This document shows, one piece after another, positions 1,677 through 58,901 of a DNA stretch of 64,000 nt. Under the pieces are notes generated by a model. The model searched no databases. It saw only the letters and a program-made list of their open reading frames with translations, and was not told the origin of the DNA. The stretch's first letter is position 1. The number at the start of each line of letters is the position of its first letter. The DNA is taken from NCBI RefSeq assembly GCF_013122565.1, contig NZ_CP053258.1; one strand, given 5' to 3'. Origin of the DNA: Escherichia coli (lineage in GTDB: Bacteria; Pseudomonadota; Gammaproteobacteria; Enterobacterales; Enterobacteriaceae). A program made the translations under genes and the position numbers.

Positions 1677-3215
1677 ATGGCTTTTGCCTCATTAATTGAA
1701 CGCCAGCGCATTCGCCTGCTGCTGGCGTTATTATTCGGTGCCTGCGGAACGCTGGCCTTCTCTCCTTACGATGTCTGGCCTGCGGCGATTATTTCGCTGA
1801 TGGGGCTTCAGGCGTTGACCTTTAACCGTCGTCCACTCCAGTCTGCCGCTATTGGCTTTTGCTGGGGATTTGGCCTCTTTGGCAGCGGTATTAACTGGGT
1901 CTATGTCAGCATCGCGACCTTTGGCGGAATGCCTGGCCCGGTTAACATCTTCCTGGTGGTGCTGCTGGCGGCGTATTTGTCGCTGTATACCGGACTGTTT
2001 GCTGGCGTGCTGTCGCGCCTGTGGCCGAAAACCACCTGGCTGCGCGTGGCGATTGCCGCCCCTGCTCTCTGGCAAGTGACCGAGTTTCTGCGCGGTTGGG
2101 TACTGACCGGCTTCCCGTGGTTACAGTTCGGCTATAGCCAGATTGATGGCCCGTTAAAAGGGCTGGCACCGATAATGGGCGTGGAAGCCATTAACTTCCT
2201 GCTGATGATGGTTAGTGGCCTGCTGGCACTGGCGTTGGTCAAACGCAACTGGCGTCCGCTGGTGGTGGCCGTCGTGCTGTTTGCCCTACCCTTCCCGCTG
2301 CGTTACATCCAATGGTTTACCCCGCAACCGGAGAAAACCATTCAGGTTTCGATGGTTCAGGGCGATATTCCGCAATCGCTGAAATGGGACGAAGGCCAGC
2401 TTCTTAATACGCTGAAGATTTACTACAACGCAACGGCACCGCTGATGGGCAAATCATCGTTGATTATCTGGCCGGAGTCGGCGATAACCGATCTGGAAAT
2501 TAATCAGCAACCGTTCCTCAAAGCACTGGACGGTGAGTTGCGCGAGAAAGGGAGCTCGCTGGTAACCGGGATTGTTGACGCGCGTCTCAATAAGCAGAAC
2601 CGCTACGATACCTACAACACCATCATCACGCTGGGTAAAGGTGCACCGTACAGCTACGAATCAGCCGATCGCTATAACAAAAACCATCTGGTGCCGTTTG
2701 GCGAGTTTGTCCCGCTCGAGTCGATTCTGCGTCCGTTAGCACCGTTCTTTGATCTGCCGATGTCGTCGTTCAGCCGTGGGCCATATATCCAGCCGCCGCT
2801 GTCGGCAAATGGTATTGAGCTTACTGCGGCTATTTGCTATGAGATCATTCTTGGCGAGCAAGTGCGTGATAACTTCCGCCCGGATACCGACTACCTGCTG
2901 ACTATCTCCAATGATGCATGGTTTGGTAAGTCTATTGGTCCATGGCAGCACTTCCAGATGGCGCGTATGCGTGCGTTGGAGCTGGCGCGCCCATTGCTGC
3001 GTAGTACCAACAACGGCATTACGGCGGTGATTGGCCCGCAGGGTGAGATTCAGGCGATGATCCCGCAGTTCACCCGCGAGGTGCTAACCACTAATGTGAC
3101 ACCGACCACCGGACTCACACCGTATGCACGTACCGGCAACTGGCCGCTGTGGGTGCTGACGGTGCTATTTGGTTTTGCCGCTGTGTTGATGAGTCTGCGT
3201 CAACGACGTAAATAA
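1677..3215 (+). CDS. lnt: Apolipoprotein N-acyltransferase, 512 aa
   Basis: ORF 1677..3215; N-terminal TM segments; C-terminal CN-hydrolase domain with E (WPESA), K ([10 protein letters not shown]), C (AAICYEI) triad. Confidence 0.95.
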
Positions 3216-3314
3216 TCCCTTCTTATCGTGCCGGAATACATCCCGTATTTCGGCACGCTCACCGGATGCGGCATCAGTGCATTATCCGGATAACAATATT
3301 CTCCTATCCAACTT

Positions 3315-3330
3315 TGGCACATCTATTGCT
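3315..3330 (+). promoter_or_regulatory. Candidate sigma-54 (-24/-12) promoter element TGGCAC-N5-TTGCT upstream of gltI
   Basis: Exact consensus-spaced GG/GC element read at 3315-3330, about 280 nt upstream of gltI ATG. Confidence 0.4.
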
Positions 3331-3611
3331 TTGTTATACAAGGCAAAGCTTGAACCAGCATCAGTACAACCCGGTTGCACCACAGCAATCCACCGGTAGC
3401 ACCAAAAGAGTGCATTTTAAGAATTTTGCTTCGGAATGGTGCGGCGCACCTCGCAAAAACAAACAATAAAACATCAATATCTTTACATTTAGCCAAACTA
3501 AATGTTACCTAACAGGCACAACACTGCACAATAAAGTTGCAGACGATAACAACACAAACACTCACAACGGGTATCCATGCGTTCTTAACGCAGAAGATAA
3601 AGGAGTTGGAT

Positions 3612-4520
3612 ATGCAATTACGTAAACCTGCCACAGCAATCCTGGCCCTGGCGCTTTCCGCAGGACTGGCACAGGCAGATGACGCCGCCCCGGTAGCGGG
3701 CAGTACGCTGGACAAAATCGCCAAAAACGGCGTGATTGTCGTCGGTCACCGTGAATCTTCAGTACCTTTCTCTTATTACGACAATCAGCAAAAAGTGGTG
3801 GGTTACTCGCAGGATTACTCCAACGCCATTGTTGAAGCAGTGAAAAAGAAACTCAACAAACCGGACTTGCAGGTAAAACTGATTCCGATTACCTCACAAA
3901 ACCGTATTCCGCTGCTGCAAAACGGCACTTTTGATTTTGAATGTGGTTCTACCACCAACAACGTCGAACGCCAAAAACAGGCGGCTTTCTCTGACACTAT
4001 TTTCGTGGTCGGTACGCGCCTGTTGACCAAAAAGGGTGGTGATATCAAAGATTTTGCCGATCTGAAAGGCAAAGCCGTAGTCGTTACTTCCGGCACTACC
4101 TCTGAAGTTTTGCTCAACAAACTGAATGAAGAGCAAAAAATGAATATGCGCATCATCAGCGCCAAAGATCACGGAGACTCTTTCCGTACCCTGGAAAGTG
4201 GTCGTGCTGTTGCCTTTATGATGGATGACGCTCTGCTGGCTGGTGAACGTGCGAAAGCGAAGAAACCAGACAACTGGGATATCGTCGGCAAGCCGCAGTC
4301 TCAGGAAGCCTACGGTTGTATGTTGCGTAAAGACGATCCGCAGTTCAAAAAGCTGATGGATGACACCATCGCGCAGGTGCAGACCTCCGGTGAAGCGGAA
4401 AAATGGTTTGATAAATGGTTCAAAAATCCAATTCCGCCGAAAAACCTGAACATGAATTTCGAACTGTCAGACGAAATGAAAGCACTGTTCAAAGAACCGA
4501 ATGACAAGGCACTGAACTAA
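3612..4520 (+). CDS. gltI: Glutamate/aspartate ABC transporter periplasmic binding protein, 302 aa
   Basis: Internal ATG at 3612 preceded by AGGAG (3601-3605); signal peptide MQLRKPATAILALALSAGLAQA; longer ORF from 3537 rejected. Confidence 0.9.
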   Translation: MQLRKPATAILALALSAGLAQADDAAPVAGSTLDKIAKNGVIVVGHRESSVPFSYYDNQQKVVGYSQDYSNAIVEAVKKKLNKPDLQVKLIPITSQNRIPLLQNGTFDFECGSTTNNVERQKQAAFSDTIFVVGTRLLTKKGGDIKDFADLKGKAVVVTSGTTSEVLLNKLNEEQKMNMRIISAKDHGDSFRTLESGRAVAFMMDDALLAGERAKAKKPDNWDIVGKPQSQEAYGCMLRKDDPQFKKLMDDTIAQVQTSGEAEKWFDKWFKNPIPPKNLNMNFELSDEMKALFKEPNDKALN

Positions 4521-4676
4521 TTACAAGAACCAGGGGCGGAAATTCCAGCCCTCTCAATTGTTACGTAGCACGGACAGACTATACGCCTGATGGTCGTTCC
4601 CCATCGGGCCTGAAAACCGCAATACGCTGGGTAACAATCTTCGAGGGTAGCAGTTAACGCTGCTACCCTCTTTTTT
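4514..4676 (+). ncRNA. sroC: SroC-like sRNA derived from gltI-gltJ spacer (3' end at intrinsic terminator)
   Basis: Position between gltI and gltJ matches known SroC locus; 3' end defined by hairpin plus T-tract; 5' end approximate. Confidence 0.5.
4643..4676 (+). terminator. Intrinsic terminator/attenuator between gltI and gltJ
   Basis: GAGGGTAGCAG-TTAAC-GCTGCTACCCTC perfect stem followed by TTTTTT, 14 nt before gltJ ATG. Confidence 0.7.
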
Positions 4677-4689
4677 CTGGAGTAGATTT

Positions 4690-5430: not shown

Positions 5431-6104
5431 TGTACGAGTTTGACTGGAGTTCCATTGTTCCTTCCCTGCCATATCTGCTCGACGGGCTGGTGATCACCCT
5501 GAAAATCACCGTCACGGCAGTCGTGATTGGTATTTTGTGGGGCACCATGCTGGCGGTGATGCGCTTGTCCAGCTTTGCGCCCGTAGCATGGTTTGCCAAA
5601 GCCTACGTTAACGTATTCCGCTCGATTCCTTTAGTTATGGTTTTGCTGTGGTTTTACCTGATCGTGCCGGGTTTTCTGCAAAACGTGCTGGGATTATCAC
5701 CAAAAAATGATATCCGTTTAATTTCGGCGATGGTGGCGTTTTCGATGTTTGAAGCGGCCTACTATTCAGAGATTATCCGTGCCGGTATTCAAAGTATTTC
5801 TCGTGGTCAATCGAGCGCCGCGCTGGCGTTGGGGATGACTCACTGGCAGTCGATGAAACTGATTATTCTGCCGCAGGCGTTCCGCGCGATGGTGCCGCTG
5901 CTGCTCACTCAGGGCATCGTACTGTTCCAGGATACCTCACTGGTGTATGTGTTATCTCTGGCCGATTTCTTCCGTACCGCCTCAACCATTGGTGAGCGTG
6001 ATGGTACGCAGGTTGAGATGATCCTGTTTGCCGGATTTGTTTATTTCGTTATTAGCCTTAGCGCGTCGTTGTTGGTCAGCTACTTGAAAAGAAGGACAGC
6101 ATAA
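5430..6104 (+). CDS. gltK: Glutamate/aspartate ABC transporter permease, 224 aa
   Basis: ORF 5430..6104; start overlaps gltJ stop; permease-like hydrophobic sequence. Confidence 0.9.
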
Positions 6105-12515: not shown

Positions 12516-13943
12516 TCACCCGAACAGATGGAGTATTTTCCCTATCAAACCAGCAAAGATAAAAATATAGAAAATAATTTTGATGACGCCCAGACAGCCC
12601 GGCCCACCATCATCAACGGGCATTGGTTGCGGTTGCGGCTCCGGTTCGACGGTTTGCTTCTCGGCAAAATTCGCCGACTGAATTAATAACCGTCGAATAA
12701 TTAATGCCTCCAGAGGACAACGATCTTCTGCATCAAGGCGGCTCACAATCGGCATTAATGATTCTTCTGTAGGTTGGCTGGCCTGCACTAATTGTTTGGC
12801 AACTAGATATAATGGCCATAAGGTATGTTCTGTATCACGCGTGAGTGAGATCCGCGGCTTACGTCCTTTGTGCAAAACCATCTCGACCAGTGAACGCCCC
12901 AGAGCAGAGAGTTTTTCATCGCTGAGTATTTCGTATAAATGAAAACGCGTACGGGCGCTGTCGCCGGGGACATAAAGTAGCGGTTTTCCCTGGTCGTTAA
13001 CCAGTTCACGAGCTTCAATCATCATCACCACTAACGGGTAATAATCGACCCGATGCTGACGACACCATTGCAACATTAAAGCATCCGCCTGGGTGGAGGG
13101 ATACTCGCGCCAGTAGTCACAAAGTTCTGCCAGCAGGCTTTCGCCTTCTCCACAATAGACGCGTTGCGCGTATTCATAATAACGCGCATCTTCATTATCA
13201 GGTTCAGCTTCCCGCCACGACCGGGCGTAATCCAGGAGTTCGGGGATATCCAGGCGACCTGCGCTATACCAGCGGAGTAAATTTCTGTGCAGTTTTGCAT
13301 CATCGGGGATAATCACTGCGCGATGTTGCGATAAATACAATGTCAGCCATTCTGGATGCGATGACCAAATCCGGGCGAACATTTGGTAAAAATCGATGGT
13401 GTCATTTTGCACGGCAACGGGCAGATGCAGAATGGTCTGGAAGTTAAAAACATTTCCCTTCGCAATGGCATATAAAAAGGATTCCAGTTCTTCTTCGTCT
13501 ATTTCCCCGGTGTTTTCCTCCTGCAACCACCGCAATCTTTCTGCTAATAACACCACACACTCGAAGGATAAATGGGCAGTGTTCATGGCGATTGTGCACA
13601 GCGACCAGCGTAATTCATCAATCTCTTCCATTGAGCAATAATTTAATTGCTGAATGAATCGCTGCCAGGCGGAAGGCAGAAAACGTTCGCTATCAGAAGC
13701 AAGTAAAGCACGAAAGGCGAGCAGAATTTCATGTTCTGCTACCTCATATTCTTCTGGTTGCCAAACAGATTTAGCAGGCGACTGCGCAATCCGTAGCGCC
13801 TCCTCATACGCCTGACGAAGTTGTTTAAAACCCTGCGGATCGGTTTCTGGATGAAAGGACGGTAACAGCGCCAGATAAGCGCGGCGGATAATATCGACGT
13901 CAGTCGTTTCCTCTATGTTGAGGATCTTCCAGCAATTTTTCAT
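12516..13943 (-). CDS. djlB: J-domain co-chaperone DjlB, 475 aa, C-terminal membrane anchor
   Basis: Paralog of djlC (N-terminal [39 protein letters not shown]); hydrophobic C-terminus. Confidence 0.85.
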
Positions 13944-14647
13944 AGGTCGCTCATATCCTTAAGCGTTTCAGGGCATGCAGAATAGTAAGCCAATGGTTGC
14001 CAGGACAAGGTAGGGTAATACGCATCATCACTGGCAAATAATTGATAAAACATATCATTGCCGGAATCGTCGTATTCTTTACGCGCTAAGAATTCACGTA
14101 ATAACTGAAGATTATCATCTTCGGGAGACTGCCAATATTGCCGACCAAAGGTATAACCGGCAAAGTATTGCTGCCAGTTACTATAATAACGTAGCGCCCG
14201 TAGATGAATGCGCGACTGGATCCATAGACTTTCTTCTTCGCTCAACCAGTTATTAAGTACGCCCATTCGGCTTAAAAAACCCATCCGGACATAATCCCAG
14301 GCTTTGATTCCCCCTTCGCCACAGCATTCGGCGGTGCTGGCGACAAATTGCGCATAAGCCTGACCTTGCTCATTTAGTTCAGCAAGATAGTCACGCCATT
14401 CACACGGAGAATAACGAAACCAGCGGTGATAAAACCCTGCCAACCGAGCGGCATGACCGTTATCGATCATTCGGTGAATTGTGCGCAGCAGGTCATCACG
14501 GTCATCAATTCCCCATGAGGAAGAAAGGTCAAAAAAGCATGTACCTAAATACATTTTGGGAGATGAATGCGAAGGTAAACAGCATTCATTGCGTATTTCC
14601 ATCGGAGTGGAAAGTGCAAACAATATTTTTTGCGACCCCATGTCCAT
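13940..14647 (-). CDS. ybeR: DUF1266-family protein YbeR, 235 aa
   Basis: ORF 13940..14647; paralog of ybeU; 4-nt overlap with djlB start. Confidence 0.85.
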
Positions 14648-33811: not shown

Positions 33812-33840
33812 AAAAAAAACCCGCTGATTAAGCGGGTTTT
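33812..33840. terminator. Bidirectional intrinsic terminator between convergent crcB and cspE
   Basis: A8-CCCGCT-GATTA-AGCGGG-T4; reads as hairpin plus T-run on both strands. Confidence 0.7.
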
Positions 33841-33859
33841 GAATTCTTGCTGACGTATC

Positions 33860-34069
33860 TTACAGAGCGATTACGTTTGCAGCAGAAGGGCCTTTGGCAC
33901 CGTTAGTGATTTCGAACTCTACACGCTGACCTTCAGCAAGAGTTTTAAAACCATTAGTCTGGATTGCAGAGAAGTGTACGAACACGTCTTTGCTGCCGTC
34001 TTCCGGAGTAATGAAACCGAATCCTTTGGACTCATTAAACCACTTAACGTTACCTTTAATCTTAGACAT
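33860..34069 (-). CDS. cspE: Cold-shock-domain protein CspE, 69 aa
   Basis: Start at internal ATG ([20 protein letters not shown]…); RNP1 motif GFGFI. Confidence 0.95.
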
Positions 34070-34243
34070 CAAAATTACCTTTACATGAAAAATAGACACA
34101 AATGCTGTGTCGGTTACCAGTACACCAATTGTGGTACGCTTTGTCCAGTGCAACTTTACTAAAAAGTGATAAAAGTCGCGTTATTTTTGATGTTAATTAT
34201 TTTACTCATTGATTTTAAAGAGTTTACTAAAATTTCATTTGTC

Positions 34244-47167: not shown

Positions 47168-47396
47168 TCATCTGATTTACAAAACACGCTAATTCGTCTC
47201 CCATAAACCATGACGATTAAGATTTATACATAATGCGCTGCATTGAGGAATTCCCTGAATGTGACGCAAATCACTTCAAAGAGTGAGCAACAGTCAGTAT
47301 CATCATGTGAGTTAAACCCTCGCCGCCTGACGGTGAGGGTTTTCTTTTGGGTATGTTTATCTGCGACACTCGCAGTACCGACGACATGGAGTAAAA

Positions 47397-47807
47397 ATGT
47401 CCAGACCAACTATCATCATTAACGACCTGGATGCCGAACGCATCGATATTCTGCTGGAGCAACCCGCCTATGCTGGTTTGCCAATCGCCGACGCGTTAAA
47501 CGCAGAGTTGGATCGCGCCCAAATGTGTTCGCCAGAAGAGATGCCACACGACGTGGTGACAATGAACAGCCGGGTTAAATTCCGCAATCTTAGCGATGGC
47601 GAAGTGCGTGTGCGCACGCTGGTGTATCCGGCAAAAATGACCGATAGCAATACTCAGCTTTCCGTTATGGCTCCGGTAGGTGCCGCACTGCTGGGACTGC
47701 GCGTTGGCGATTCCATTCACTGGGAACTTCCGGGCGGCGTTGCAACCCACCTTGAAGTGCTGGAACTCGAATACCAGCCAGAAGCTGCTGGCGACTACCT
47801 GCTTTAA
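47397..47807 (+). CDS. rnk: Regulator of nucleoside diphosphate kinase Rnk (GreA/B-like), 136 aa
   Basis: ORF 47397..47807; recognised sequence. Confidence 0.9.
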
Positions 47808-47944
47808 TCCCATCTGCACAAGCGATAACTCGCTTTGCCCAGAGGATGCACTCGCATCCTCTTTACGCAAAATCAGCAATTTTTCCTGGTTCTCACTGTT
47901 CACTTTTGCTGCAAAATTATTCCGTTTCGTTTGTGGGAATAACC

Positions 47945-48034
47945 ATGGCAGAAGCATTTTACATCCTGATAGGATTCCTGATTATGGCGGCGATTATCGT
48001 CATGGCTGTCCTTTACCTCGAAAACCACTCCTGA
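47945..48034 (+). CDS. Candidate small membrane peptide ORF (29 aa, MAEAFYILIGFLIMAAIIVMAVLYLENHS)
   Basis: ATG at 47945 with GGGA 6 nt upstream; single hydrophobic helix; stop 3 nt from ybdR stop (tail-to-tail); unverified. Confidence 0.3.
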   Translation: MAEAFYILIGFLIMAAIIVMAVLYLENHS

Positions 48035-48037
48035 CGA

Positions 48038-49276
48038 TCATATTGTTCCCCCCGGCATCGCATTCACCAGACCTGAAACTGCCTTCTGCGCTGCCTCTGC
48101 GCTTTGTGCACCGGGTACCAGAATCACCTTACGGCACTCCTCTTCACGTTTTTCGAAAATCTCATATCCCCGGGCGGCCTCTTCAAACGGCATATAGTGG
48201 GTAACAATTTCTTCTGGTTTCAGTAATCCTTTCTCAATTAACGGTAATAATTCTCCCAGCCATGCGTGAACGTGGGTCTGTCCCATTTTAAACGTCAACC
48301 CTTTATCAAAGGCGTCGCCAAACAGGAAACCGTGAATAAATCCAGCGTAGACGCCCGGCACGCTAACAATGCCGCCACGCCTGACCGCCGCAATACACTG
48401 GCGCAACGCTTTACCGCTGCTGCCCTCCAGTTTCAGGTTAGTCAGCACCGTTTCCGTGGTGCTGCCTTTCGCTTCAAAACCGACGGCGTCTATTACTGCA
48501 TCCACGCCCCGGTGACCTGCCGTTTGTTCAATAATTGACTGTGCCGGATCGCTATCTTCATCAAAATTAATCGGGATCGCGCCGTAGCGGTCAGCGGCGA
48601 AACGCAAGCGGTAGGGATGATGATCAACAACAAAAATCTGTTCCGCACCGAGCAACCGTGCACAGGCGATTGTCAACAATCCCACAGGACCGGCACCATA
48701 GACTGCAACGCTTGAACCTTGTTGGATCTGCGCATTTTTTGCTGCCTGCCATGCCGTTGGCAGAATATCAGAAAGGAAAAGGGCTTTATCATCTGAAAGC
48801 AAAGGCGGTACTTTAAACGGCCCCACATTCCCTTTAGGGACGCGGACATATTCCGCCTGCCCGCCAGGAACGCCACCATACAGGTGACTATAACCAAACA
48901 ATGCCGCGGGAGCTGGTATCTGTTTTTTATTGAGCGCAGCGCCTTTACCCGCATTGGTATTTTCGCAGGCGGCATATTGCTGCAATCGACAGAAAAAACA
49001 GTCGCCACAAGCAATGACGAACGGAATTACCACCCGGTCGCCTTTTTGCAAATTTTTTACGTCCTTTCCGGTTTCAACGACTTCCCCCATAAATTCATGA
49101 CCAAAAATATCGCCATGTTTAACCTGGGGTATTTTGCCTCGATAAAGGTGGAGGTCAGAGCCACAGATCGCCGTTGCCGTAATACGCAGAATTATATCAT
49201 CTGCCTGTTCAATGCCCGGATCGGGAACATTTTCTACCTGAACGTGATGTGGGCCGTGATAAGTCAATGCTTTCAT
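48038..49276 (-). CDS. ybdR: Zn-dependent medium-chain dehydrogenase/reductase YbdR, 412 aa
   Basis: GHEFMGEV zinc motif and GAGPVG Rossmann motif. Confidence 0.9.
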
Positions 49277-49496
49277 GCAACCTCCAGAGACAGTTCAAAA
49301 AAGAGTCAGTCTTTAAGGGTAGCTATCACAGCGGGAAAACGGGCGGTACCGCAGGATTTGGGAGAATTCCTGGTGTTCAGTGAGAATATATTCATCACAG
49401 AAACAGTTCGTAAGGAAAAAGAACCAGACAAATATCAGGGATAAATATTATAATCATGGCGAATGATTTGTTCATGATTAACAGGGAGAAAGGGTT

Positions 49497-57812: not shown

Positions 57813-58901
57813 ATGCCTCACAATCCTATCCGCGTGGTCGTCGGCCCGGCTAACTACTTTTCACATCCAGGAAGTTTCAATCACCTGCACGATTTTTTCA
57901 CTGATGAACAGCTTTCTCGCGCGGTGTGGATCTACGGCGAACGCGCCATTGCTGCGGCGCAAACCAAACTTCCGCCAGCGTTTGAACTGCCAGGGGCAAA
58001 GCATATTTTGTTTCGCGGTCATTGCAGCGAAAGCGATGTACAACAACTGGCGGCTGAGTCCGGTGACGATCGCAGCGTGGTGATTGGCATCGGCGGCGGC
58101 GCACTGCTCGACACCGCGAAAGCCCTCGCCCGCCGTCTCGGTCTGCCGTTTGTTGCCGTTCCGACGATCGCCGCCACCTGCGCCGCCTGGACACCGCTCT
58201 CCGTCTGGTATAACGATGCCGGACAGGCGCTGCATTATGAGATTTTCGACGACGCCAATTTTATGGTGCTGGTGGAGCCAGAGATTATCCTCAATGCGCC
58301 GCAACGATATCTGCTGGCGGGGATCGGTGACACGCTGGCGAAATGGTATGAAGCGGTGGTGCTGGCCCCGCAACCAGAAACGTTGCCGCTAACCGTGCGG
58401 CTAGGGATCAATAATGCGCTGGCTATTCGCGACGTCTTGTTAAACAGTAGCGAACAGGCGCTTGCCGATCAGCAAAATCACCAGTTAACGCAATCATTTT
58501 GCGATGTGGTGGATGCCATTATTGCTGGTGGTGGGATGGTTGGTGGTCTGGGCGATCGTTTTACGCGTGTGGCGGCAGCTCATGCCGTGCATAACGGTCT
58601 GACCGTGCTGCCGCAAACCGAGAAGTTTCTCCACGGCACCAAAGTCGCCTACGGAATTCTGGTGCAAAGCGCCTTGCTGGGTCAGGATGATGTGCTGGCG
58701 CAATTAACTGGAGCGTATCAGCGTTTTCATCTGCCGACTACGCTGGCGGAGCTGGAAGTGGATATCAATAATCAGGCGGAGATCGACAAAGTGATTGCCC
58801 ACACCTTGCGCCCGGTGGAATCCATTCATTACCTGCCGGTCACGCTGACACCGGATACGTTGCGTGCAGCGTTCGAAAAAGTGGAATCGTTTAAAGCCTG
58901 A
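57813..58901 (+). CDS. ybdH: Iron-type (glycerol-dehydrogenase-like) hydroxycarboxylate dehydrogenase YbdH, 362 aa
   Basis: GGGALLDTAK NAD-binding motif; family III ADH-like. Confidence 0.9.
   Translation: MPHNPIRVVVGPANYFSHPGSFNHLHDFFTDEQLSRAVWIYGERAIAAAQTKLPPAFELPGAKHILFRGHCSESDVQQLAAESGDDRSVVIGIGGGALLDTAKALARRLGLPFVAVPTIAATCAAWTPLSVWYNDAGQALHYEIFDDANFMVLVEPEIILNAPQRYLLAGIGDTLAKWYEAVVLAPQPETLPLTVRLGINNALAIRDVLLNSSEQALADQQNHQLTQSFCDVVDAIIAGGGMVGGLGDRFTRVAAAHAVHNGLTVLPQTEKFLHGTKVAYGILVQSALLGQDDVLAQLTGAYQRFHLPTTLAELEVDINNQAEIDKVIAHTLRPVESIHYLPVTLTPDTLRAAFEKVESFKA

Follow-up and report, generated by a model that had tools for sequence, protein, structure and literature searches.

The rnk-linked open reading frame yldA encodes a conserved single-helix membrane peptide with probable distant kinship to YoaI

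The 29-codon open reading frame at 47945..48034 (+) of the window, by which we mean the whole stretch of 64,000 nucleotides of Escherichia coli DNA analysed here (contig NZ_CP053258.1), is almost certainly yldA, a real gene that is translated into a single-pass inner-membrane peptide of 29 residues, as judged from a published experiment and from the conservation measured in this work. The overall best explanation of the data, to which we give a probability of roughly 0.85, is that yldA is a real membrane-peptide gene whose product is a distant paralogue of YoaI and acts on a larger inner-membrane protein. As a gene, yldA is already known, since it has been named, annotated and experimentally detected. 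The sole new element is the link to YoaI with its critical glutamate retained, which provides a concrete and cheaply testable functional lead for an uncharacterised small protein.

The frame runs from an ATG at 47945 to a TGA at 48032-48034 and encodes MAEAFYILIGFLIMAAIIVMAVLYLENHS (29 aa), exactly as the preliminary description of this DNA had claimed. A single transmembrane helix is predicted at about residues 4-25, between Glu3 and Glu26, followed by the four-residue tail ENHS, and of the 211 peptides of 25-35 aa that run from ATG to stop anywhere in the window, it has the highest hydropathy. It matches the YldA equivalog model of NCBIfam (NF041476) over its full length, residues 1-29 on model positions 1-29, with 57.9 bits against a curated cutoff of 45 (E 7e-16). 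The counterpart in MG1655 is b4734 (YP_009518757, 643330-643419), which is located between ybdR and rnk. The window strain differs from MG1655, with 98.7% identity over the 3.5-kb locus, and the only difference within yldA lies at 47977 and is synonymous; the window peptide is the same sequence as the MG1655 YldA printed in Table 1 of VanOrsdel et al. (2018). When the spacer was compared by megablast with 5,426 complete E. coli genomes, the position of the frame bore the RefSeq/PGAP label "yldA: small membrane protein YldA", and PGAP annotates the gene in thousands of genomes.

The gene name yldA (b4734) has been in use since VanOrsdel et al. (2018), who fitted the chromosomal gene with a C-terminal SPA tag and detected a unique immunoblot band in LB cultures in both exponential and stationary phase. 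Thirteen of the new small proteins of that study also appeared in the tetracycline ribosome-profiling screen, but not YldA, and the study gives mass-spectrometry peptides for none of its proteins (VanOrsdel et al., 2018). The SPA-tagged band is evidence of translation; it says nothing on the stability or function of untagged YldA, and our literature search, in which three relevant papers name YldA, found no functional experiment on the peptide.

Conservation was assessed in two samples. For the species sample, a degenerate DNA pattern for the IIVxAVLYLE motif common to both E. coli alleles was searched against a species-representative genome collection. It matched 32 loci, 24 of them from Enterobacteriaceae: Escherichia, Enterobacter, Lelliottia, Citrobacter, Kosakonia, Phytobacter, Huaxiibacter, an Enterobacteriaceae isolate that is not classified further and a MAG with no label finer than Proteobacteria. 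The remaining eight were unrelated chance matches without a comparable ORF and were set aside. In each of the 24 loci, which have 55-69% nucleotide identity to the window in yldA, the ATG lies exactly 16 codons before the pattern and begins an ORF of exactly 29 codons with the stop in the same place. The preliminary description had named frame conservation beforehand as a test that could refute its proposal; the yldA frame is open in all 24, while each of the five other frames is interrupted by stops in 9 to 24 of the 24. Over all codons the pN/pS ratio is 0.35, and it is 0.50 for those unconstrained by the pattern, with pS of about 0.6, near saturation. Glu3 is invariant, Ile7 and Ala16 are nearly invariant, and residues 4-16 vary yet stay hydrophobic. 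Conservation is strongest in the membrane-embedded C-terminal half, AIIVxAVLYLE, of which positions 17-26 were imposed by the search pattern in this set of 24 genomes, a sample biased to holders of the motif. A longer in-frame ORF beginning at the ATG at 47846 (62 aa) is not conserved, as several relatives carry an in-frame stop 8-13 codons before the shared ATG.

The second sample was independent of the peptide and consisted of metagenome contigs located via the invariant hairpin downstream of rnk (described below), which gave 15 loci with both rnk and the hairpin. The same 29-codon ORF is present in 10 of these, starting 83-88 nt past the hairpin, and Glu3 and AVLYLE are invariant in all ten, including two variants that the first pattern would miss. 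The gene is missing from four of the 15 loci and frameshifted in one (L119), where the frameshift falls inside a run of eight T; this copy may be a pseudogene, or the shift may be an assembly error in the homopolymer. The YldA peptide is thus under purifying selection where it is present, and the gene is dispensable in some lineages.

Nearly all complete E. coli genomes (5416 of 5426) carry one of two yldA alleles, at a median of one place per genome. The K-12-type allele together with ybdR is found in 3,600 genomes, and a diverged allele, MSEALGITAFYIFIAAIIVAAVLYLEQRW, lies between rnk and uspG without ybdR in 1,816 genomes including UTI89; the two proteins are 52% identical. Between the rnk hairpin and uspG, the species thus has two haplotypes that have diverged deeply (window 47868-49496 versus 3090-3383 of locus L002), and the flanking rnk and uspG genes of both are 97-99% identical. 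Since the K-12-type peptide is nearest to the Citrobacter amalonaticus form, the sequence comparison suggests that the haplotype was replaced by recombination in E. coli.

Upstream of yldA on the same strand lies rnk (nucleoside diphosphate kinase regulator, 47397..47807, +), and this is its conserved neighbour. The rnk-to-yldA spacer measures 137 bp in the window; in all 24 species loci rnk ends 135-154 bp before yldA (317 bp in one locus), and it also precedes yldA in the ten metagenomic loci, while uspG follows downstream in the species loci. The convergent gene ybdR (Zn-dependent alcohol dehydrogenase, 48038..49276, -) is a variable neighbour outside the yldA unit. It occurs in only seven of the 24 species loci and is absent from the 1816 E. 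coli genomes, about a third, that keep the diverged yldA allele. In the metagenomic sample, ybdR occurs without yldA in three loci (L054, L112 and L120), and loci with neither gene were also seen. Each of the four possible combinations of presence and absence is thus represented, which makes the stop-to-stop abutment incidental: with yldA and ybdR gained and lost independently, their adjoining stops carry no functional meaning. The preliminary description was right about the geometry, with 3 nt between the two stop codons (that of ybdR at 48038-40) and a rnk-ybdR spacer of 230 bp counted from the rnk stop at 47807. Its statement that this spacer is otherwise unassigned does not hold, as yldA is annotated there, and the abutment on ybdR that it pointed out gives way to the tie with rnk.

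Because the stops of yldA and ybdR almost touch, their 3' ends must overlap, and ExcludonFinder lists the pair as one of the convergent excludons that it finds in 50% or more of the RNA-seq samples. In the arrangement lacking ybdR, the genes rnk, yldA and uspG are co-oriented and uspG starts 180-260 nt past the yldA start. The products of rnk, uspG and ybdR are all soluble, and none of these neighbours at the locus is a membrane-protein gene that could supply a partner for YldA.

A Shine-Dalgarno-like GGGA is read directly at 47935..47938 (+), 6 nt before the ATG and in the place given for it in the preliminary description. A purine-rich GGGGA, GGGA, GGA or AGG stands at an equal distance from the start in the orthologous loci, all 24 species loci having such an element, and we infer that the element would serve ribosome binding. 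Further upstream, at 47842..47861 (+) and 83 nt before the ATG, lies the rnk 3' hairpin, an 8-bp stem of the form GAGGATGC-N4-GCATCCTC followed by TTT. It is present in both the MFE and the centroid folds, and is unique within the window. Its stem does not differ in any of the 25 aligned spacers, which come from at least seven genera, while the loop (N4/5) and both flanks vary. The stem contains no compensatory changes at all, though nearby synonymous sites are near saturation; the sequence itself may be constrained, for instance as a protein or RNase site. Since the hairpin is kept in loci without yldA, it belongs to rnk. It is not called in the terminator scan, its T-run being too short, and it may act as a bidirectional terminator in the three loci where ybdR abuts it.

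Consensus scans of both haplotypes yielded no sigma-70-like promoter upstream of yldA, the sole matches being chance-like and inside the ORF, and no canonical terminator for the gene. By eye, the aligned rnk-yldA spacer showed nothing convincing in the way of PhoP boxes, PhoB boxes or a conserved -10/-35 pair, and no Rfam family covers the yldA ORF or the spacer. Two conserved blocks stand within window positions 47870-47930 (+), namely AAAATCACC (TCACC) about 15 nt past the hairpin and TTAATC(C/T)GTTT, which precedes the ATG by about 25-35 nt; they fit no recognisable promoter consensus. As the U-tract of the hairpin is short and no yldA promoter was found, read-through from rnk is plausible; expression of yldA would probably be low, and driven either by transcripts that pass this weak hairpin or by a promoter that the scans did not recognise. 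Upstream of rnk, at 47243-47351 (+), is a complete Rfam rnk_leader (RF01771, 124.9 bits), and yldA would come under its control if it is read through from rnk. A transcriptome study of NaF treatment lists yldA among 100 transiently up-regulated genes, together with phoPQ, mgtA, mgtS, rstAB and osmotic-stress genes. This response fits a stress role of YldA loosely, and from this single study we would expect stress of the envelope, osmotic or Mg type to raise its expression.

The second-best of 18,950 NCBIfam families for the window peptide is the model of another small protein, YoaI (NF041475; 22.5 bits, E 8.7e-5), and YoaI holds this rank for all eight YldA variants examined (19-32 bits, E 9e-8 to 1e-3). 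These scores fall short of the curated YoaI cutoff of 45 bits, so YldA is not a YoaI orthologue. Residues 3-29 of YldA align to 8-34 of YoaI in seven of the eight variants, and the Lelliottia variant aligns 6-29 to 11-34 with an equal offset. The match is reciprocal, as YoaI also scores against the YldA model. When YoaI was shuffled 20,000 times with its composition kept, no shuffle reached its score against a custom YldA HMM. None of ten unrelated small hydrophobic E. coli peptides matches the YldA or the YoaI model. An exhaustive search of representatives with YoaI yielded 23 relatives, and 17 aligned cores of these made up a YoaI profile. In hhalign, 23 YldA against 17 YoaI cores gave a probability of 96.5% (P 9e-10) over 27 ungapped columns with a score of 38.2, compared with 8.7 +/- 2.1 (max 18.5) for column shuffles and 13.9 +/- 3.1 (max 24.5) for shuffles with the flanking Glu and Glu-Arg fixed; in either case, 0 of 300 reached the real score. 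The order-specific similarity of the two profiles thus exceeds what hydrophobic composition gives. Convergent similarity is a general risk with transmembrane helices, and the shuffle controls argue against it here. On this sequence evidence, YldA is probably a distant paralogue of YoaI, a relationship for which we found no report in the searchable literature.

The likeness extends to architecture. YldA and YoaI (b1788, 34 aa) share an ungapped register in which residue i of YldA corresponds to residue i+5 of YoaI, a 22-residue hydrophobic helix with a glutamate at each end, the two glutamates being 23 positions apart, and a C-terminal [A/S]-V-L-x-[LI]-E-[R/K/N] with a four-residue tail that ends at the equivalent aligned residue. 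The YoaI invariants E8, L10, I12, F16, S26, V27 and E31 align to E3, L5, I7, F/Y11, A21, V22 and E26 of YldA. Ser26, Val27 and Glu31 are the invariant YoaI residues given by Vellappan et al. (PMC11429745); at these positions YldA has invariant Ala21, Val22 and Glu26, two of the three being identical and the invariant serine of YoaI being replaced by alanine. In contrast to YoaI, YldA lacks a five-residue N-terminal extension (MNDxM) and is encoded at a separate locus, and neither a partner nor PhoB regulation is known for it. The window tail ENHS has no Arg or Lys after the glutamate, although such a residue follows it in most YldA sequences and in every YoaI sequence except one. Like yldA with ybdR, yoaI has a convergent neighbour with adjoining stops, yeaK; in MG1655 (yoaI at 14079-14183 of locus L036) the yeaK and yoaI stops are directly adjacent with a gap of 0 nt. 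This shared geometry is probably coincidence.

YoaI is membrane-associated with a C-terminal tail predicted to be cytoplasmic; it binds EnvZ and activates EnvZ-OmpR, and its E31A exchange weakens the two-hybrid signal with EnvZ (Vellappan et al., PMC11429745). By extension from YoaI, YldA would adopt an N-out/C-in orientation with a cytoplasmic tail and would use its helix and the invariant AVLYLE tail to dock on a larger inner-membrane protein. Tentatively, and by analogy with the YoaI-EnvZ pair, the single most likely class of partner is a sensor histidine kinase. More speculatively still, YldA and YoaI might form a two-member enterobacterial 'Glu-helix-Glu' family in which YldA tunes a sensor histidine kinase, EnvZ or another, via the tail with the invariant Glu26. 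If this is true, YldA would give two-component signalling a second small-protein input, one that connects it with envelope, Mg or osmotic stress. In size class, inner-membrane site and proposed action by direct binding, YldA resembles the single-pass sensor-kinase modulators of the MgrB-PhoQ, SafA-PhoQ and MzrA-EnvZ pairs. No sequence similarity to MgrB, SafA or MzrA was detected, and the functional periplasmic or cytoplasmic segments of these three are much longer than the 3-4 residue ends of YldA.

About equally possible, and just as tentative, is that YldA, instead of modulating a kinase, serves a transporter or enzyme complex as accessory subunit or stabiliser. Precedents are AcrZ with AcrB, MgtS with MgtA, CydX with cytochrome bd, and KdpF; they too are one-helix peptides, of about 30-50 aa, and work only via a larger partner. 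Most characterised enterobacterial single-pass small peptides, including those covered in a review, bind transporters or respiratory complexes. The conserved AIIVxAVLYLE half would suit helix-helix packing with any membrane partner, and the joint rise of yldA with mgtA and mgtS under NaF points the same way. Against this reading, YoaI, the sole detectable homologue of YldA, targets a kinase, and no gene for a transporter or complex keeps synteny with yldA in the 24 species loci; KdpF and CydX are encoded in the operon of their partner, whereas yldA has no membrane-protein neighbour. No sequence similarity of YldA to AcrZ, MgtS, KdpF or CydX was found.

The other alternatives are far less probable. 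A type I toxin-like peptide that damages membranes and is restrained by antisense transcription from convergent ybdR would be short and very hydrophobic, as YldA is, and would agree with the reported overlapping transcription of ybdR. We nevertheless consider it improbable: such toxins are multi-copy and patchy in distribution, whereas yldA is single-copy and syntenic across genera; tagged YldA accumulates from its native locus in ordinary LB cultures; yldA stands without ybdR in a third of the E. coli genomes and in most genera, which leaves no constant antisense partner; and no toxin family is among the NCBIfam matches of YldA. There is just as little to recommend the view that translation of yldA matters and the peptide does not, the frame being a regulatory ORF for rnk 3' end processing or uspG expression. 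The co-oriented rnk-yldA-uspG arrangement, in which no terminator is predicted between yldA and uspG, would accommodate it, but the amino-acid sequence is kept while third codon positions are near saturation, and the peptide features are retained where ybdR separates yldA from uspG. Nor does the window present the layout of a leader peptide or uORF, as its next gene, ybdR, is convergent and uspG follows only in genomes without ybdR. Least probable of all is a chance ORF in an intergenic spacer, which the preliminary description had kept as an option and which the conservation data refute. With 58 ORFs of at least 20 aa overlapping the 3.5-kb region, an ORF of such length alone is no evidence for a gene, and the missing consensus promoter would also agree with chance. 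Yet start, length, stop and frame are kept over at least seven genera in spite of the low nucleotide identity, and the peptide has been detected by immunoblot and matches a curated family model. A genuine gene for a single-helix small membrane peptide, as the preliminary description had proposed, is the reading that its identity as YldA and the conservation of the frame support.

Elsewhere in the window, the hydrophobic ATG-initiated ORFs of 26-35 aa that rank just under YldA, at 12623 (-), 58504/58513 (+) and 49475 (-), have no NCBIfam family match, and the one at 58504/58513 (+) lies out of frame within a larger ORF of 362 aa. A further hydrophobic mini-ORF at 6018 (+) proved to be the C-terminus of GltK and not a separate gene. 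Other Rfam elements that reach the gathering threshold in the window are the sroC sRNA at 4516-4678 (+), with 168 bits, and a cspA thermoregulator at 33812-34170 (-), with 126 bits.
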